Source of the DNA: Amoebophrya sp. A120
Taxonomy: Eukaryota; Protista; Dinoflagellata
Direction: 5' to 3'
DNA: 12,084 nucleotides
NCBI GenBank assembly: GCA_905178155.1
Contig: CAJINV010000009.1
Span: forward strand, 3,621,956 to 3,634,039
Shown: in pieces, positions 1 to 12,084 of the stretch
How the letters are laid out: each line of letters starts with the position of its first letter
Position numbering within the stretch: the stretch's first letter is position 1
The notes under the pieces: model-generated
Database searches by the model: none
What the model was told of the DNA's origin: nothing
What the model saw: the letters and a program-made list of their open reading frames with translations, nothing else
Translations under genes and position numbers: made by a program

Positions 1-69
1 AGGCACATGCAAGGATGACCATGCAGCATTTTTACAAGTTTCCAGACCCAGCCATGTTTGCAATGCACA
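1..69. mobile_element. Right end of the same TIR element in duplication copy 1 (truncated by the window)
   Basis: Identical to 5232-5300. Right TIR at 39-69 followed by GGGGT at 70-74. Confidence 0.85.
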
Positions 70-70
70 G

Positions 71-1192
71 GGGTTGCCTCGCGAAGTTTCTCGTCCCGAC
101 TTGCGCCGTCTTTGCTTGGCAAGGGTGCGACGAAGGTGGCCCGGTCTGCATGGCTATTCTTTGTGGTTGCTTCTACACCCTGCTCTGCTGGAAGCCTGCG
201 CCGGAGCAAAAAATTTGGGAGGCCGACGCTACCAAGGCGAAAAAAGTCTTGTTATCCATAGAGTGAAATAAAACGTGTCGCCCGTCACGTCGACCCCAGA
301 GTCAGTTCTTGTCACGCACATCTGCATTTTTATACTTAACCTATTGGCCCGTGGTGTTGGGGTGATGGTCCTGGTCGTGTCCAACACACACGATAATGCT
401 GTTGATGCGGAGCCCTCTGGGAAGAGTTATTGTCTATTGCTGATGTTTTTGGAATTTCAATTTGCGATGCTCGAATCAGCATGAGATGCCAGATCTGTGA
501 TGCGGATTCTTCGCTAGCTATTAAGTACTTAAGAAGCACGATTTCTGTGGAGCTGCGAGCTCAAAGAATGAACTTGCCGTGCGCGGCGGTAACTACAGCT
601 AATATGCTTGTTCATTTCTTTGATGTCTCGTCCTCGTGCCAGATCAACATGTTGACAACAACAACTCTGGGACCCCCGCGGCGTGGGCTTTGTTTTATTT
701 GGCCTCAGGATATTGGTGCTGCGGATGCCACCCGCTGGATAAGTGCTGCAGGTTCTGGTTTCCGTTCACGGCTATCGCCTCCTGGCAAGGGTGTGACGTA
801 ATTCTCGACTTCATTCTCGCATTCGTCGTACCGTGCTACGCATGCTGCTGCTGGCAGCCGCGCCCCACGCAGAAGATTTGGGGGGCGGGGGCTGGAGCCC
901 CGGTCGTCGGACAACCGCAGGTATACATATTTAAAACGTACGCACGCAAGTGTAATGCCAGTAATAAGCTTTTGCTTTACAAGAACTTGTACTTGAACTA
1001 CACAAAGTCAAAGCAAGTGTCTACTTGCTCGCGTCGTCGACGTCGTGAAGAATGAAGTAAGAAGAAGAACGTACGAAAGATGAAGAATGAGTTCCGATTT
1101 GGCTATAGAAAAAAATTAAAATGCACATAATCTTGTTGTTGATGTTGTTTCAGGCGGCCGAAACTACTCCGCTGACTGCCGACCCGGAGTAA
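71..1192 (+). CDS. Cys-rich membrane protein gene, copy 1 (5' exon outside the window)
   Basis: Exon from 71 (module 1), exon ~709-920 (module 2), GT-AG intron 921-1153, last exon 1154-1192 (AAETTPLTADPE*). The three substitutions vs copy 2 in module 1 (ATT/ATC, TAC/TAT, CTC/CTT) are all synonymous in this frame. Confidence 0.65.
921..1153 (+). other. Canonical GT-AG intron (paralogous intron at 6091-6317)
   Basis: CAG|GTATAC donor and TTGTTGATGTTGTTTCAG| acceptor, phase 0, giving a short open terminal exon in both copies. Confidence 0.65.
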
Positions 1193-1717
1193 TTGGAGGA
1201 CGAGTACTTCTAACCCGGGCTCGCCGCGGAGGACTGAAGATTTGTTAGTAGTTGGAGCACAATACATTGAGTCGGACAGGCTGCGCGGAAATGTGTGAAT
1301 TACATGCTTGTTTTGCGCCAGTTTCTGTTTTTTTCGACTGAAAATTAGCAACGTAGGCGTAAGTACGACGTCTGGAGTTTCATTTGATGTCGTGTATTTG
1401 AATTTGACCCTAAAGATGAAATTATACTTCACCCCCTTGATTAGCTTCAGCAAGACGAAACTCGATAATCGTTTGTGACTTGATATTCCATTTCCTAGTC
1501 CCAGAAAAAAACAAAAAGCGCGATGTTGTAACCCATCATCGAACTTTTGACGCCATGCCCAGGCACGGAAAGAAAGGAAGAACCTCCCATCATAAACAAT
1601 TACAAGAAAAAAAATTCTATTTTCGTCACCAGTTCACGTTTTACTTTTATTCTGCTTGTGCGTGAAGTAGATCCGACCTGATAGCAGGTCCGGGCAGCTG
1701 CACGCACAACCCCCCTA

Positions 1718-2193
1718 CTAGAGCAGATCGCGACACGATACTAGATTCTGAATAGATTTAGATACTACTTCGAGGGATCCCCGGGAATAAGTATATCTAA
1801 GACCTATCATAGATGACAAGATTCGAATCGTATTAGTAGTGTGAAGACGAAAGAATTTGCAACGCATTTGTTCTTCATCAGTCTGCCACTTCTTGTGCGT
1901 ATCACAAACGACCTGCACGCGCAAAGTGAGTGAAAAGGCAAATACTTGTTCATAATCCTTGTCTTCGTGCACAAAAATGAAGGGAGCTCCCACCGCCTGC
2001 TCCACTGAAGCTTGTAGTTCGAAAGATTTGTAGAGCCCCGCATGGAGGTGGTCGTTATCCTTCGATTCTTTTGCGGCTATCAAAAAACCGAGCGAGGAGG
2101 AGAGAACAAAAGCAGGGTAGCCCGGTGCTCGTTTAATATCGTTCTCATGATCTTCATGAAGCTGCATTGAAATTAGAACTAGTTCGTCTCCAC
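1718..2193 (-). CDS. Possible terminal exon of an unknown minus-strand gene (also 6900-7375)
   Basis: Longest ORF in the window, open in both copies. The one substitution I saw is synonymous (CGT/CGA). A TTGCAG| acceptor lies at the duplication end. No recognisable homology. Confidence 0.22.
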
Positions 2194-2879
2194 CTGCAAT
2201 CTTTTTGAAAAAAGTTGCTCTACGACGAAACTTCCAAATATTTACTGGCCATAAATATTTTGCAGCTTTTAAGTAGGGGGAGTGGTAACACACTCTCGGT
2301 GTCGTGTTATGCCCATCGTTCGCAGCAATAGCATCGCGCTACGATTTCGGTTGTTGCTCGTGCGCTCTTCGGTGCTCACCTTGCAGCGAGGAAGCTTTAG
2401 CATTAGCCTCGTGATTCGAAAGACAAGAAGGAAAGAAGTAGAAGAAGAAGAGGAAGAGGAAGCTGTTTGTGACAACATGCTGCTATCTTTTCTTCAGGTG
2501 CTGTAAGTAAGGAAAAACAAAAGCAACACGCATCCCGAAAACCAGTCGGCTTTTGCTGTATACCATCGATGTTCGCGCGCTAAGAGGAGGAATGCTCAAA
2601 ATTCGCCATGATTGCTGAAGTAAATCGATGGCTTCTATTCGATCGTCTGTTTTCAAAAATGTTAATCGTTACTTCAACAGGCAAATTATTGCACTTCAAC
2701 ATAGTTGCTTTTTACTAGCTGTGGTCGACAAGAAATATCGTCGGATCAATGCATCTAAGCTCTGTTGATCCAGTTCCAGCAGGAGATCACTTTGTTGATC
2801 TTCGTGTCGGTTTTACGTACTCAATGCATGTGCAACTGAGTCAAAGATTATCCAGCTGTATCTCTGTTCAATAGATAAT

Positions 2880-3370
2880 TTTATGTCAACATCCCTTGAC
2901 TTTTTTGAATATAAACTTCTGCTTGCTCCTTCAGCTTCGTCCACATGCCTCTCTTCGGTTCTTTCTTTCTGTGCTCTGCTTCCTCGAGAGATTTTTAGTC
3001 CATGTATCGACTTACGCATGCTCATCGCTCGTGATTCTCGTTTTGCATTTTCTCGCATTCTGTCCTCATGTCTTCCTCGGTTTTTCATTTCTATTTTCTA
3101 GTTTGTCATGCTATTTTCGATCCTCTCGCTCTCCTTATTTTTAGATCTCGCTACCTCGTGTGACTCGACGTGCTTGTATCGATCTATGCTTGTTTCTCGA
3201 CTGTTCTTTGTTTCGATTTGCAGGTATTTTCAGCTCTATCTTCGCTCTCGATCTTGGCTATGCATTTTTCGATCTCGACCTCGATGGATCTCGTTCTCGA
3301 TTTTCGCGCCCCGAGTGAGCTTCATCTTTCTTGCGTTCTTCCTTTTCCTCTTCTTCTATTCTCTTTCCTT
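2880..3370. repeat. Pyrimidine-skewed low-complexity tract with degenerate TCTCGA/TCGATC units
   Basis: Strong T/C bias on + strand with repeated TTTTCGATC, CTCTCGATCT and GATCTCG words, densest at 3115-3305. Confidence 0.55.
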
Positions 3371-4226
3371 GAAGCACGTTGTTTTCGTGGTTTTGTGGTC
3401 GGTGAGCCGGTACCCCTGTCCGCCATAAAAATCTATGACACGACAAACAAGCGAGCACTCCCGTACATTGTCTCTTTCCTCTGCTTCATAGGGCAGTGAG
3501 ACTGTGTTCGGTGAGACGGCAGGGGCTGTAGTGCTTTCCCTCCTCCTTCGGTCCCGAGTGAGTTTCGGTGCGTAGTTTTGTGTTGCGAGTGAACCTGAGC
3601 TGTCCAAATTCCTGTTTCTGTTCTCATGCAAAATGTCATTTGCATGCTCGACAAAATTCAATTTTATGTGTCACAACGAATAAGTACCCGCCGGGCGGTG
3701 AACAAGCCGAAGGCACTCCCAGGGTAGAATAGTTGTTGTACGAAGAGCATGATAGATCACCCCCAGGAGGTATAATGAAGTTGTGATTTTCAGTTTGTTC
3801 TTCTTGCGCCTGTACATGTAGCTGAGCATGAACGTATTTGCATATGCATGATTCGAGGCCGTTCGTTGATGCCGTCAAGACTTTTTCTGAAAATTTCTAT
3901 CCGAATCGTTCGTTGATTCGAGTCGGTCAACACACATGTCATCTTCGTTCACCTCGTGCTGATGAAATCGTTCACCCTTCCAGCACTGCATCTCTGTAGT
4001 TGTAAAAATCTCGGTAGTTGTATGGAAGCGTCAGGTTTGAAATCGTCAAAGTTGAAATAATCTGTAAGGCATAAAATGCATGACCCGAGGCGCGTGTGTT
4101 GCAGAGCAGGCAAGTGAGGCCGATTGTAAGCCTGTTTGGGGTTACAGCTCGAGGTGCTAAAGTAGCATGAGAAAATCGCTCTTCTTTGCCTAAATAGCAT
4201 GACAGACTGGATCTAGGGACCGCCGA

Positions 4227-4289
4227 AATTTGTCATGCGCCACTTGGAAACTGGGTTCCAACTGGCATCCATTTTATGCATGACAAATT
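4227..4289. repeat. Nested inverted repeat (hairpin)
   Basis: AATTTGTCATGC (4227-4238) pairs with GCATGACAAATT (4278-4289). Inner GCCACTTGGAA (4239-4249) pairs with TTCCAACTGGC (4256-4266) with one mismatch. Confidence 0.8.
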
Positions 4290-4960
4290 ATTTGAACTTT
4301 GTCGATTTCAACTCTGACACATCCATAAGTTGTGAAAAAATTGATTTTAGTTATTTTGCGCTACAGCCCTCACGTTTTTGTTTCCTTTCAGTTTCATAAA
4401 CGGCGTATAATTTATTTTCATCGTCCGCGACGCTCTCAGACGTTGGCTCCTGGTCCTCCTGCTGTCGTCATCTTCAGGCGATTTATTTTACTCGTACACA
4501 CAGCAGAGGTTCAGGAGAAACTACAACTTCTAGTACCTCTTCACCTGCTCGGTTTTCGTCCTGCTTTATTCCGTGCAAAAGAATATTCAAGACTCGTCGT
4601 ACTCCCCTCATCTCTGCGAACTTGTCGTTTTATTTCGTTTTTCTGCGAAAGCTCTCATGATAGACATAGTCAACAGCAAAATGATGCTCTTCTTCATCAC
4701 AACTCAGACTCAGGATAATAAATTCGTTGAGCTCGTCCACCTCTACTACCTTGTAGACCTGTTGTGCCCCGCACTCTCCTCCACCTCTCTCAACAGACAT
4801 CGGAACTCGAGAAGTAGTTTTTCGAACCATCATCTCTCGCAGAAAAGTAGAAAGAAAGCTCTTGCACGTGTAGCAAGACAAATAGTTCTGTGTTCCGTTT
4901 TCTGCATCACAAGTTCAACGCAGTTGTTTCTTGCGGTAGAGTTAGGCAAAAAAATACAAA

Positions 4961-6374
4961 ATGCCGACCACCCCGAACGAGTCCGTTGACCCCCGGGGTT
5001 ATCCACTGCACATATGTCTGGGTCTGGAAATAGGTTGAACCTGTATAATAATTGCGTGTCTCGCATTTATTTTCCTGCAAAATCTGCATTTTTGCAAAAA
5101 AAGCAGCACCAAAGGCGCCACGCTACTTCCGTCATGCTCTTGCAAAGTCGCAGTTTGCAACAATGCGTGCTGTTGTGTATGAGAAAGCGACTGAAAATGA
5201 ATTTGTCATGCTTTCCTGCAGTTAAACTTAAAGGCACATGCAAGGATGACCATGCAGCATTTTTACAAGTTTCCAGACCCAGCCATGTTTGCAATGCACA
5301 GGGGTTGCCTCGCGAAGTTTCTCGTCCCGACTTGCGCCGTCTTTGCTTGGCAAGGGTGCGACGAAGGTGGCCCGGTCTGCATGGCTATCCTTTGTGGTTG
5401 CTTCTATACCCTGCTTTGCTGGAAGCCTGCGCCGGAGCAAAAAATTTGGGAGGCCGACGCTACCAAGGCGAAAAAAGTCTTGTTATCCATAGAGTGAAAT
5501 AAAACGTGTCGCCCGCCACGTCGACCCCAGAGTCAGTTCTTGTCACGCACATCTGCATTATGCTTAACCTATTGGCCCGGGGTGTTCGGGCGATGGTGGT
5601 CCTCGTCGTGTCCACCACACGATAATGCTGTTGTTGCGGAGCCTCATGGCGAAAGAGTTATTTTCTATTCGCTGTTTTTGGAATTTCAATTTGCGATGCT
5701 CGAATCAGCATGAGATGCTAGATCTGTGATGCGGATTCTTTGCTAGCCATTAAGAAACACGACTGTGCAGCTGCGAGCCCAAAGAATGAACTTGCCGCGC
5801 GCGGCGGCAACGAGGTACATGTTGACAACAACAACCCTGGGGCCGCGGCGTGGGCCGCTTTGTTTTATTTGGCCTCAGGATATTGGTGCTGCGGATGCCA
5901 CCCGCTGGATAAGTGCTGCAGGTTCTGGTTTCCGTTCACGGCTATCGCCTCCTGGCAAGGGTGTGACGTATTTCTCGACTTCATTCTCGCATTCGTCGTA
6001 CCGTGCTACGCATGCTGCTGCTGGCAGCCGCGCCCCACGCAGAAGATTTGGGGGGCGGGGGCTGGAGCCCCGGTCGTCGGACAACCGCAGGTATACATAT
6101 TTAAAACGTACGCACGCAAGTGTAATGCCAGTAATAAGCTTTTGCTTTACAAGAACTTGTACTTGAACTACACAAAGTCAAAGCAAGTGTCTACTTGCTC
6201 GCGTCGTCGACGTCGTGAAGAATGAAGTAAGAAGAAGAACGTACGAAAGATGAAGCATGAGTTCCGATTTGGCTATAGAAAAAAATGCACATAATCTTGT
6301 TGTTGATGTTGTTTCAGGCGGCCGAAACTACTCCGCTGACTGCGGAGGAGTTTACTTGTTCTAACCCGGAGTAA
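4961..6374 (+). CDS. Small Cys-rich membrane protein gene with two homologous modules (copy 2); unknown function
   Basis: ATG 4961 after an A-rich leader. Exon 4961-4995, then the introner, then an exon from 5302 (GCLAKFLVPTCAVFAWQGCD...CWKPAPEQKIW). Exon ~5879-6090 (YWCCGCHPLDKCCRFWFPFTAIASWQGCD...CWQPRPTQKIWGAGAGAPVVGQPQ), phase-0 GT-AG intron 6091-6317, last exon 6318-6374 (AAETTPLTAEEFTCSNPE*). The junction between the two modules is unresolved; these could be two tandem genes with the first stopping at 5497. Confidence 0.65.
5000..5300. mobile_element. MITE-like TIR element, probable introner (non-canonical intron) in the Cys-rich gene
   Basis: Left TIR 5000-5030 TATCCACTGCACATATGTCTGGGTCTGGAAA vs reverse complement of 5270-5300 TGTGCATTGCAAACATGGCTGGGTCTGGAAA (25/31). 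Flanked by direct repeat GGGGT (4995-4999, 5301-5305). Removing 306 nt joins MPTTPNESVDPRG to CLAKFLVP in frame. Confidence 0.85.
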
Positions 6375-7381
6375 TTGGAGGACGAGTACTTGTTCTAACC
6401 CGGGCTCGCCGCGGACTGAAGATTTATTAGTAGTTGGAGCACAATACATTGAGTCGGACAGGCTGCGCGGAAATGTGTGAATTACATGCTTGTTTTGCGC
6501 CAGTTTCTGTTTTTTTCGACTGAAAATTAGCAACGTAGGCGTAAGTACGACGTCTGGAGTTTCATTTGATGTCGTGTATTTGAATTTGACCCTAAAGATG
6601 AAATTATACTTCACCCCCTTGATTAGCTTCAGCAAGACGAAACTCGATAATCGTTTGTGACTTGATATTCCATTTCCTAGTCCCAGAAAAAAACAAAAAG
6701 CGCGATGTTGTAACCCATCATCGAACTTTTGACGCCATGCCCAGGCACGGAAAGAAAGGAAGAACCTCCCATCATAAACAATTACAAGAAAAAAAATTCT
6801 ATTTTCGTCACCAGTTCACGTTTTACTTTTATTCTGCTTGTGCGTGAAGTAGATCCGACCTGATAGCAGGTCCGGGCAGCTGCACGCACAACCCCCCTAC
6901 TAGAGCAGATCGCGACACGATACTAGATTCTGAATAGATTTAGATACTACTTCGAGGGATCCCCGGGAATAAGTATATCTAAGACCTATCATAGATGACA
7001 AGATTCGAATCGTATTAGTAGTGTGAAGACGAAAGAATTTGCATCGCATTTGTTCTTCATCAGTCTGCCACTTCTTGTGCGTATCACAAACGACCTGCAC
7101 GCGCAAAGTGAGTGAAAAGGCAAATACTTGTTCATAATCCTTGTCTTCGTGCACAAAAATGAAGGGAGCTCCCACCGCCTGCTCCACTGAAGCTTGTAGT
7201 TCGAAAGATTTGTAGAGCCCCGCATGGAGGTGGTCGTTATCCTTCGATTCTTTTGCGGCTATCAAAAAACCGAGCGAGGAGGAGAGAACAAAAGCAGGGT
7301 AGCCCGGTGCTCGTTTAATATCGTTCTCATGATCTTCATGAAGCTGCATTGAAATTAGAACTAGTTCGTCTCCACCTGCAA
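5232..7381 (+). repeat. Direct segmental duplication, copy 2 (true left boundary unknown)
   Basis: Matches 1-2199 with the offset shifting from 5231 to 5182. Paired ORF translations are identical or nearly so (15..266 vs 5246..5497; 1480..1665 vs 6662..6847). Confidence 0.97.
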
Positions 7382-8126
7382 CTACGTGCCTCGACGCTCG
7401 ATGCTGTATGCTTCCCCAGCCACCGTGCCTGGATGTTAACGAAAAACAAAGCGTCTACTCGGAAATCGTGGCAAGATGAGGTCGCGCTGGATGCAGTGAA
7501 TGAAAAGCACAAGAACCAGAAACTGTTTTAAAAAAAGCAATAGAAATACTAGTCCATGGCCCCGAGATCGAGAACTACTACGTCTGCACTCCGTCCTTTT
7601 CCATCACACGCCAGGAGTCGTGTTGATGTACATCAATGCACGAAAAGCGCTCCCGGTATTTACTCAACTAGTCTCGTGCACTCCAAAAAAAATCCTACCC
7701 TCGTTCTCAAGAAGTGATACGACTTTTCGTATAATACGTTCGAACAAGTACAGCACAGCAAAGAATAAACTAGCTTCGTGAAAATTTTTACATTCGAGTT
7801 GTATGTTGTTTGTGGGTCGTCTCCGTCTCGTCGCGTGAACTACAAGAGAGCAGTGCCATTCTTGCCTCGTTCTCGAAAGAAAAAAACAAGCGCCTAGCTG
7901 CTCCTTGACTTCTAGTACATCAAGAAATCCGTCGTTTCAAAAAACTATCAACCTCCACAGCCCAGGACGTTTTTTAAACCAAAAAGAAACTACGACTTCT
8001 CGCACTCTCTACTCTCCTCGACAAGAAAAAGTACTCGGTCTTTAGGGAGTTGCTGTCCCAAAAGAATTTTAAACTTCTTGTTGGAACTTCTACATCCAAC
8101 GTCAACGAAGTACGAATCGACAGAAA

Positions 8127-9761
8127 ATGTTGGCTGCTCTCGCGAAGAATCCAGTGGTGGAAGTGATGGCAGGGACCTCGAGTCTGCCGTACGTGTGGGA
8201 GGTGATGACCTTTTTGTTCCTGGCCCAGGTAGCCGAGACCGTGGTGCTGCTCTCGGAAGCAACCACTTTGGTGGGAAAGGCCGCCGACCTGCTCCGGATT
8301 GCCGTTAGGGCTTTTGGAGGTAATGAAGAAGCATTGCAGTTTTGCATGCGAATTACAATTATTTATGCGAAGATGCGTACAACAAAGTAAAAGTTCTTCC
8401 CCTACACGTACAAATTGTTAATCACAAACCCACCCACTTCGAGCATGCCACTTGTTATGCTGAGTGGGGTACTAGCTTGCCGAAAGTATTTTTCAAATGC
8501 AGATGAATGCGTTCCGGTTCACGTTGTAATTAGGCACCAAAAAAATTCCAATCCTCTAAAAAAAATGAAAACTATCAGGTGTGCACATTGTGTTGCCGTT
8601 CATTCTGGGTTCCTTCCCATCTGTCCTGCTGAACGAGCTCGACCGGTATGCGGGTATCTTCGTGGCCGTGGTTGTCATCTTCGTGTTGCTCGGCAGCTAT
8701 GTCCCAGACAGGGTCATGAACGCACTCAACTACCCGAAACAGCTGGGCTACGCAATCTTCGTCTCCAACATCTGCGTCAGCGGAACCATGCAAGGTTTTT
8801 TTTGGTGTTTTGCTTGGGTGGAGCTAGAAGGAGAAGGACAATAGAATTGAGCGGTCGTTCCGCTGTCATGTTGTTCTGTACGACGTAGTGGACAACAAGT
8901 CAAGGGCAACCCACTATATTACGTTTAGCTCTTCAAGAACCAGTCCTTTTGCTATGGCAACGAAATTGCATATGCTAAAACTTCTACACAAACGACAGGT
9001 ATGGCCGCCTTCCCAGATAGCGAGTGCGCGCCAGTTTTGTTGGGCTTCTTGGCCGTGTGCGGTGGGTACCTGCTGGAGATGGGCGTGACCGCGAAATTAT
9101 GAAATGCAAAAATGTCTGGGTCTGGAAGGTCGCAGATTTTTGTCATGTTGTTCTTGCATGACACGGAAGGTCTGGCATGGACGCCCTAGCATCACAGGTT
9201 TAGAGAAGGTTACGCAATGCCTAATCCGCATGACAACTCCTCTATTCCGATGACAGAGAATGGGTAACTTTTGCTGCCTAAGCATGAGAGATTTCTGCGC
9301 GTTGTGAAATGCGCATTACAAGTTCGAATCTTTCCAGACCCAGACATATTTGCAATGCATACAAATTCTTCAAGAAGGACTATTCCTCCGACCAGTTGTT
9401 GGCACTCTTCGGCCCGGTCCTCTTCATGCAGCTGACGACGTACTTTATATTTTCTTTATTTTGCTCGTGGTCCTCTAGAAGGAAAGTAGCATAATTTTTG
9501 CATTCACTATAGTGCTACTGCTACAACAATTTTAATGAAAGTGGAAATCTGTATTGCACAGCTGGTAAAAGTAAAAGATGTTTTCCCAAAAACAAAACCA
9601 GCAACTCTCGTCTCCTGCTCGCCGAGCCGCTCGCGCGCGCGATGGTGTTCGTGTTCCGTCTGTCCTGTGAAGTCATTGACTACAATGAAATCCTGGCGTA
9701 CGTGAATTACCTGCGCATCAAGGTCCTGCAGAAGGTCGCAACCGCGATCGGCTATCCGTAA
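8127..9761 (+). CDS. Five-exon polytopic membrane protein, 246 aa, TRIC/TMEM38-like (trimeric intracellular cation channel family, tentative)
   Basis: Exons 8127-8319, 8579-8794, 8999-9093, 9363-9439, 9602-9761 total 741 nt and read open to TAA. GT-AG introns at 8320-8578, 8795-8998 and 9440-9601 have matching phases; intron 3 is the TIR element. Several hydrophobic helices and two glycine-kink motifs (RAFGGVHIVLPFILGSFP; FLAVCGGYLL) recall the two repeats of the TRIC fold. C-terminus ...ARAMVFVFRLSCEVIDYNEILAYVNYLRIKVLQKVATAIGYP*. The gene model is strong; the family call rests on motif resemblance only. Confidence 0.8.
9098..9361. mobile_element. MITE-like TIR element of the same family, probable introner (intron 3 of the membrane-protein gene)
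   Basis: Left TIR 9098-9128 TATGAAATGCAAAAATGTCTGGGTCTGGAAG vs reverse complement of 9331-9361 TATGCATTGCAAATATGTCTGGGTCTGGAAA (27/31). Flanks are GAAAT (9093-9097) and CAAAT (9362-9366). Removing 269 nt joins ...LEMGVTAK to FFKKDYSSDQ... in frame; unspliced reading hits TGA at 9100-9102. Confidence 0.87.
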
Positions 9762-11865
9762 TTTTGCGGCGGCTCTGCAGTTTGACGGATGTTTACGATA
9801 TCGGGACGAGGAGTAACACGAAAAGCAGACTCCTATTCGGGCGGAATAGCCAGCGAGTCAACACGACGACCTACGGAGGTAGGAGATGAAAAGGTTTACG
9901 AAAAAAAGAAAAACAATTTTGAGATTTTACAGTATTAACAGTATGGCTTTCTATTTGATAGTAGAGATTACAACTAAAGCTAAACACACACACTACGTAC
10001 GAGAGCAGGTACGTAAATAAACAGCATTTATTTTACGAGATTACAGCAATAGCAAAAACCTACGGTAGGACTTCCTTTAAACTGACTTTAACAAAATTAC
10101 CTTGAAATTTTATCACGTATGTATGAATTTTAGCAAAGTTACAACAGCACTGCGGCTTGACCCGACGGAGCATGAGCAAGCGCAATCAAGTTTCTTTCTT
10201 AACCTTTAAATTGCAACAAAAATCAGCACCAATTTCTCAACCACCTTTTATTGTAATCAGACAAGCAAATTTCCAAGCAAAACCTAGAGTTCTGTATGTT
10301 AATGCCGTTCAGAGAAAATGCACAAAGTTTTACCCGCAGAGACCTTTATTTGGCAGTTTCGCACGACGAAAAGAAAAAATGGCGGCTTCTCCGGAAGCTG
10401 CATCTACCCTAGAAGACCAAATTCTACCCTAGGAATGCATTGTACACTATTCGCTTGATAAGTAACCCACGGTAAGTAGCCCTACCACGGCGCAGCACTC
10501 GAAAATGGGAAATGCAGGACCTGTACGAGCAATATCAGAGCAAACGCAGAACGTAGTGCTGGCAGTGTGTCCGTCTCCGCAGGGTGGAAGTTACTAGAGC
10601 AGTAAAATGTTGTTTTTTTCAAAACAATGATGTACGAATGGAGAAATGCGCACCAGCTTGCTTTACGGCAACCGCGTCTAGAAAACTTACGAGACGATAC
10701 GCCCACGACGACAAGTAGAAGAAACTCACATTTGCTTCGTAGCGGCCCTTGTTTCCCCTGGTTCGAGAAAAAAATACGACTTTGCGTCTGTCACTGCGCC
10801 GACGGTTGTGGCGTGACTGATGAGGTGGATGACGGTCTTCATTCGTCGTCGTACCTGCTACTACTGCTTTTTTCTGTTCTGATTTTTCTTAAAGTTGGCC
10901 AACTTTACCAGTGGGTTGTCACTGTCAGTGTGATGTCGTCGAGGGGTCGCATTGTGTGTCGACCAAGTGAGCGTGCGTAAGTATTGATTTCGGAAAGCTT
11001 GTGTGTGTCGCAATGGCGAAGCAGGGCATGATCTCGAGCAGTCCGAGGGCATTATACCACAAGTAGGAGTGCAGTGACGTCGAGAGGAGACAAGTTGATT
11101 AGAGCATTATAACTAAGTGTAGGTTGATAGATTCAACAGACTGACTCTCAACACTCCTTCGCTATCGCTGCGACCCTTCGTAAAATTACCTGGTCGCTGG
11201 ACCAGCGTCAAGAATTCTCCTCGTAGTTACGTATCGATATACCAGTCGAGGAAAGAACACTCGCAAAGCTCCACGTGCGACGTCCACACACCGCCAACTA
11301 GAAAAAAAAATGACCGCCGGTACATCCTCCCAGCATCACCGCAATGCCGCTTCGGAGATGGAGGCGGTGCTCCACTACTCCGCTTTGCACGATGCCTGCA
11401 GTTCTTCAAAAGCAACCAGCAGCTCCTCCTCCCGAGGAACCAGGCCCGATAATGGACAGTCGTCCTGCGCCCCGCGGTCACATCTGCACTGCCCGGATTT
11501 CAAACAGTACGATTTTTGTCTTTGTTGAATTGTAAACGAGAAGGTTGACTGGGGGGAGGTAAAGAAAAACGCACTAGCACCGTGATTGGGGCAAAACCAC
11601 TTGTGTAACAAGTGGTGCAGTAGCACCGTGATTCAGCTATTTCATGCGCGCCATTTCAGGTGGTTGCGGGAACGCAACCCCGATGGTTTGCTGGGTTCCC
11701 GGGCTGTCGTTTTTGTGCAACGTCAAAATCTTGCCAGAAACCACAAGCGCAACCCTTCCCCCGATGGTACGGGCTCGCTTAAGAGGCCGGCGCCGGATTT
11801 GACCGAGTCGGCCACACCGGACGAATCACCGAAATCCGCGGATTTGGGTGTTCTCGGCGTTCGCG

Positions 11866-12084
11866 TGTTCGCGCGTGCCCTTTTTGACGGCTAATCCGCC
11901 TGCTACGGCGCCGCGAACAGAGCGCGAACACAGTGTTCGCGCTCTGTTCGCGCGTACCCTTTTTGGCGGCTAATCCGCCTGCTACGGCCTCCGCGAACAG
12001 AGCGCGAACACAGTGTCCGCGCTCTGTTCGCGCGTGCCCGCTTTTGGCGGCTAATCCGCATGCTACGGCCTCCGCGAACAGAGC
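11866..12084. repeat. GC-rich tandem repeat, 79-81-bp unit, ~2.7 copies visible, containing a 41-nt palindrome
   Basis: Unit starts TGTTCGCGCGT at 11866, 11945 and 12025. CGCGAACAGAGCGCGAACAC-A-GTGTTCGCGCTCTGTTCGCG at 11912-11952 has perfect 20-bp arms. Continues past the window end. Confidence 0.95.

Follow-up and report, generated by a model that had tools for sequence, protein, structure and literature searches.

Amoebophrya sp. A120 is known to carry introner elements, for which Farhat et al. (2021; PMC7789003) gave 29,850 members in 1954 families and 17% of the assembly. The inverted repeats of these elements start with TAT, seven variable bases and AAA, and are bordered by direct repeats of 3-5 nt, with 5-bp repeats in the legend of Fig. 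S19. Dataset file 8 of Gozashti et al. (2025; PMC12130899) holds A120 families of DNA introners with terminal inverted repeats (TIRs), which have similar size and TIR length to those treated here and whose superfamily is given as unknown. Here we analyzed a 12,084-nt stretch of Amoebophrya sp. A120 contig CAJINV010000009.1 (the window), in which two TIR elements, E1 and E2, interrupt host gene 1 and host gene 2. E1 and E2 are a real feature and belong to the introner class already published for the A120 genome. They are likely non-autonomous DNA transposons of the A120 introner kind, and their removal is probably the work of a relaxed spliceosome, with the termini as guides. The elements and their hosts were located as follows.

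4961..6374, plus strand: host gene 1, a cysteine-rich protein of 158 amino acids (aa) with a presumed start codon; exons 4961-4999, 5306-5483, 5888-6090 and 6318-6374
4995..4999, plus strand: 5′ target-site duplication (TSD) of E1, GGGGT
5000..5300: E1, a 301-nt element with a 31-nt TIR; 306 nt (element plus one 5-nt repeat) are skipped, with the joint 4994->5301 in runs X3 and X6
5301..5305, plus strand: 3′ TSD of E1, GGGGT
8127..9761, plus strand: host gene 2, a hydrophobic protein of 246 aa with three GT-AG introns plus E2; exons 8127-8319, 8579-8794, 8999-9097, 9367-9439 and 9602-9761
9093..9097, plus strand: 5′ TSD of E2, GAAAT, whose G is retained in the joined contigs
9098..9361: E2, a 264-nt element with a 31-nt TIR and TAT..ATA ends; 269 nt are skipped, with the joint 9093->9363 in runs X3 and X6
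9362..9366, plus strand: 3′ TSD of E2, CAAAT (4/5 match)

All four element ends (E1 and E2) agreed with one another at 25-28 of 31 positions. The 31-nt consensus matched the window five times whether up to 6 or up to 10 mismatches were allowed, while each of 10 mononucleotide-shuffled windows gave 0-1 matches at up to 10 mismatches. Both E2 ends fit the TAT + 7 nt + AAA motif, and E1 was off by one base per end. The coordinates, lengths and TIRs that a sequence-only reading had proposed for the two elements were borne out by this end comparison and shuffle control, and the direct repeats, GGGGT versus G/CAAAT, were both found as it gave them. Its view that the elements form one family holds for the TIR and fails for the interiors, which were alignable only across the first 46 nt. 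With one repeat included, E1 measures 306 nt and stays in frame with stops, and E2, at 269 nt, causes a frameshift. Deleting the element and 5 nt recovered the reading frame in both hosts. Thus the earlier statement that each element carries in-frame stops and restores the frame upon removal was right about the restored frames and about the stops in E1, but E2 shifts the frame instead.

Four of 15 listed sequencing runs (X3, X6, X9, and X13) were aligned to window positions 3300-10000. X3 and X6 come from one study, consist of assembled contigs and have a guessed RNA status, and X9, from another study, is RNA on record. The contigs of X3 and X6 omitted exactly 306 nt at E1, 269 nt at E2 and 404 nt at a further element, E4. 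The E2-skipping contigs were also without the three GT-AG introns of gene 2, and in gene 1 one more GT-AG intron was skipped. Because GT-AG introns are also missing from them, the X3 and X6 contigs behave as spliced RNA. In X9, the E4 joint was found at depth 3. The non-canonical exon borders of gene 1 may slide within the repeats. Among the equivalent borders, GT-AG was present in none of the seven options at E1 (which include GG-AG and GT-GG), none of the six at E2 (which hold no GT or AG) and none of the three at E4. Where the two repeats differ, at E2 and E4, the joined contigs carry the letters of the 5′ copy, indicating that the 5′ cut lies after repeat position 1 in E2 and after position 3 in E4. 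The suggestion that the elements are removed as non-canonical introns therefore agrees with these exact joints without GT-AG in the X3 and X6 contigs.

The spliced product of host gene 2, and exon 8581-8793, was identical to the public protein P0001 of Amoebophrya sp. A120. The public gene model thus already leaves E2 out, so this intron is annotated and not new. Because the E2 host is an A120 protein, the likeness to Amoebophrya introns drawn by the sequence-only reading turned out to be the source itself, with the class described in PMC7789003. The orthologues P0002 (A25, 55%) and P0003 (51%) aligned without gaps over the E2 joint, and their alignment excludes the nearest in-frame GT-AG alternative at E2, which would cost 7 codons. 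E2 thus sits in a conserved gene. Host gene 2 had no significant match in Pfam or PDB sequences.

Host gene 1 contains an internal repeat of two cysteine-rich copies (WQGCD ... QKIW), 43% identical over 49 aa with an E value of 3e-11. This repeat argues that the gene is coding. Moreover, the exons of its upstream paralogue read open past the same joint. A search with exon 3 gave no relative among 12 candidates, which were longer proteins, and is a weak negative. The gene does not end at 5497, as was first read, but continues through two more introns to 158 codons.

In order to find further copies, the TIR pattern was searched in metagenome contigs. The search gave 152 loci, all of them in assembly JACKZZ01, from 14 of 64 parts scanned (~550 stretches estimated), and the same pattern had 0 matches in viral contigs. 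The 152 loci held 141 distinct paired elements, of which 135 were 240-324 nt long. A perfect 5-bp repeat lay flush with the ends in 111/141, and no other length between 2 and 9 exceeded 9/141. The multi-copy family that the earlier reading anticipated is thus present in JACKZZ01 as paired copies with target duplications. After removal of 10 elements with fewer than 4/5 repeat matches, 131 copies were kept. The E2 interior matched 42 of them, at best 84% over 194 nt, and 130/131 copies formed one cluster with E2. The best interior identities among copies had a median of 88%. E1 had a full-length match at one locus, L127 (72%); because only L127 matches full length, E1 is taken as a divergent subfamily with a shared TIR. 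Among 262 ends, 250 started with TAT and 240 fit the A120 motif.

Insertion into coding sequence was assessed with a codon model built from the two window genes. With 60-nt flanks, deletion of the element together with 5 nt yielded the best codon phase in 92/125 copies, versus 45 when the flanks were shuffled; the same test gave 94/131 at 45-nt flanks and 60/94 at 90-nt flanks. A test of stop-free frames over the joins (123/125 versus 122 shuffled) was uninformative at 45-60 nt. The 92 copies were oriented 48 versus 44 relative to the gene, an assignment that depends on the codon model and will include some errors, and showed 88 distinct target repeats. A GT donor was possible in 43/92 (41 expected) and an AG acceptor in 39/92 (41 expected), while neither was available in 33/92 (33 expected). 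From the 125 flank pairs, 58 were picked for at least 30 open codons per side and run against Pfam. In two of the 58, both sides matched adjacent segments of a single Pfam family, RPB1 (1-24/26-66) and TCP-1 (285-341/344-400); five matched on one side and 51 on none.

Two other patterns were tried and rejected in these data. A T follows the 3′ repeat of E1, E2, and a further element, E3; this T was present at the same place in 35/141 copies, with a perfect 6-bp repeat in 0/141, and is neither a rule nor part of a 6-bp duplication. A 1888-nt span of L003/L004 was dismissed as an autonomous copy, as its flanks were mismatched; it is probably two half elements. As side observations, three longer members (L028:632-1465, 834 nt; L056:1807-2437, 631 nt; L054:571-1051, 481 nt) had perfect 5-bp repeats and interiors that were for the most part unique, perhaps captured DNA, with longest frames of 85-137 aa. 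The local density was very high in L015, L072, and L008, with 3-4 family copies per 3 kb.

Compared with the A120 introner elements, E1 and E2 come from the same organism by protein identity, and share the TAT + 7 nt + AAA ends, border repeats, non-canonical ends, skipping without GT-AG (in the runs of guessed RNA status), repeated copies and a length of ~240-300 nt without a transposase. They differ in having a 31-nt TIR and a strict 5-bp duplication, in contrast to the 8-20-nt inverted repeats and 3-5-nt direct repeats of PMC7789003. In addition, that paper described the families as strain-specific (A25 versus A120), whereas two window families recur in a second assembly, JACKZZ01. The TIR string was not found in the searched supplements of PMC7789003 and PMC12130899, and their other files and figures may contain it.

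The elements are short and non-coding with a TIR and a constant 5-bp TSD, as in miniature inverted-repeat transposable elements (MITEs). Transib and Ginger transposons likewise combine a 5-bp TSD with a TIR, and have the termini CAC..GTG and TGT..ACA, in contrast to the TAT starts of the present family. Introners of Micromonas and Aureococcus (PMC11282704, PMC7789003) are also MITE-like, with a TIR, target duplication and exact removal. However, they carry or co-opt GT/GC plus AG, while the window elements need neither and their family inserts in both orientations; no GT-AG was present at E1 or E2, and the pair was available in 9/92 elsewhere. The introns of Fritillaria borealis and euglenids (PMC11282704) resemble E1 and E2 in having a TIR and TSD at non-canonical borders. 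On the other hand, the Fritillaria introns prefer AG-AC/AG-AT ends and a TAC target, whereas AG begins none of the equivalent borders of E1 or E2, and nearly all targets in the family are distinct. The euglenid nonconventional introns have an end consensus unlike that of the window elements.

Taken with these comparisons, the following mechanism is proposed. A transposase acting in trans would bind the TIR and insert the element with a 5-nt stagger at nearly any exonic site and in either orientation. The insertion would leave the 5-bp duplication that is seen in the sequence flush with the TAT..ATA ends, and skipping of the element with one repeat, as seen in the contigs, would recover the original coding sequence. 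Since GT and AG are dispensable, both orientations occur and the TIR is the sole symmetric feature, the borders would have to be set by the TIR, which could act through a protein that binds it or through an RNA stem joining both ends. In predicted folds of E1-E4 the two ends paired, which is expected of any TIR. The chemistry is most likely spliceosomal, since the spliceosome is nearly complete in Amoebophrya (83 of 89 spliceosomal proteins; PMC7789003), though U1 small nuclear RNA (snRNA) was not found there. A broader proposition joins two parts: a TIR-reading machine, perhaps non-spliceosomal, that splices either orientation from any target, and an unclassified DDE transposase (TAT..ATA, strict 5-bp duplication) common to several families and more than one Amoebophrya-like genome. 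We regard this proposition as doubtful.

Several results weigh against the proposed mechanism. If the RNA stem were under selection, a signal would be expected on the transcribed strand, but G-U pairs numbered 90 and A-C pairs 92, and the own ends of the copies paired at 26.54/31 positions, the same as shuffled partners (26.54/31). GT and AG were both possible in 9/92 copies versus 3.5 expected, a modest enrichment that suggests canonical signals may help. No transposase-sized frame was present in 19 unpaired ends and five long candidates within the 152 loci, and so the long transposase-encoding copy that the sequence-only reading had advised looking for did not appear; no identical pair was found among the 131 copies. 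As to removal, X3 and X6 are guessed RNA from a single study, contigs and not reads, and have no DNA-run control, while X9 covers E4 and neither E1 nor E2, and X13 gave 2 aligned reads. The E1-skipping contig has the alleles of the upstream paralogue at 5389, 5407, and 5416, and removal of E1 is therefore not separable from that of the paralogue. Finally, the empty E2 site in the orthologues is known from proteins, not DNA.

The absence of any need for GT or AG and the insertion in both orientations would also fit a route outside the spliceosome, in which an endonuclease-ligase or a second machine recognising the TIR or stem removes E1 and E2 from RNA. That U1 snRNA was not found (PMC7789003) points the same way, and the circular excised introns of euglenids (PMC11282704), for whose nonconventional introns such a route is debated, provide a precedent. 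However, most spliceosomal proteins are present, the non-canonical introns of Fritillaria are reported to be spliceosomal (PMC11282704), GT-AG is modestly enriched, and the hairpin selection signal was absent in both tests. We consider this route unlikely, and prefer removal by a relaxed spliceosome.

It could also be argued that the joined forms are DNA, such as empty alleles, processed copies or the result of precise DNA excision in a fraction of cells, and that the element-bearing genes are unspliced; the guessed RNA status of X3 and X6, which have no DNA control, and the other alleles of the E1-skipping contig leave room for this. But the same contigs are without at least three GT-AG introns, X9 skips E4 as RNA on record, the essential RPB1 and TCP-1 genes carry such elements in JACKZZ01, and non-canonical introns with RNA support number in the tens of thousands in PMC7789003; such a reading is thus very improbable. 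Even less credit is given to the view that E1 and E2 are ordinary MITEs in pseudogenes, or are removed through nearby cryptic GT-AG sites. In-frame GT-AG pairs do lie near both elements, and no homologue of gene 1 was found, but the observed joints sit elsewhere than those pairs and no gap interrupts the orthologues where E2 is joined out; cryptic in-frame GT-AG removal was ruled out by the contig joints together with the orthologue alignment.

The window holds further elements and a gene duplication, which are listed below.

1..69: part of a duplicated block, namely the right end of the copy of E1 that the upstream gene 1 paralogue carries
4021..4327: E3, a 307-nt TAT..ATA element of another family with a 62-nt TIR and perfect AGTTG repeats
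5484..5882: E4, 399 nt long with TAT..ATA ends, a degraded TIR of another kind and the repeats CTTGT/TTGGT; joint 5481->5886 in X3, X6, and X9

E3 and E4, which carry other TIRs, were overlooked in the sequence-only inventory. The copy at 1-69, which that inventory counted as a separate insertion, belongs to a 2.2-kb duplication of the host gene: window 1-2199 repeats 5232-7381 at 94% identity in a tandem-like arrangement, and the duplicated block includes host gene 1 as well as the introners inside it. The identity of 1-69 to the E1 right end (31/31) is explained by this duplication. The removal of E4 makes a 404-nt non-canonical intron (element plus 5 nt, repeats matching at 3/5), exact in three runs, and E4 is an older TAT..ATA element. 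The copy of E4 in the paralogue is ~460 nt long, compared with 399 nt, and the exons remain open; contig variants suggest that both gene 1 copies are represented.

No joint across E3 was found in the aligned runs, where flank coverage was scant. One minus-strand frame of E3 is open for ~57 codons, and full-length relatives of 74-78% identity were present in L011, L050, L051, L054, and L058 of JACKZZ01, several with 5-bp repeats. Among the matches listed for X3 and X6, contigs leave the TIR at 9097-9098 (E2) and at 4021 and 4327 (E3) into foreign flanks, indicating that both families have further copies in these runs. Contigs also span from the end of gene 1 to gene 2 across 6427-8317 (X3: 7352-10000), which suggests transcripts that overlap or have long untranslated regions, though contigs are no proof of this. 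A GC-rich tandem repeat with a unit of ~80 nt and internal palindromes occupies 11859-12084 at the window end, a 54-nt imperfect hairpin lies 3′ of both gene 1 copies (1656-1709 and 6838-6891), and an Rfam search of the window gave 0 matches.

In a limited literature search, we found no paper settling the removal route of Amoebophrya introns. The finding matters for this question, and the description of the elements is now sharper: a strict 5-bp duplication, no target consensus, both orientations, dispensable GT and AG, and essential genes among the targets. E2, with its imperfect repeat and, as internal controls, the three GT-AG introns in its host gene, offers a clean substrate for lariat mapping.

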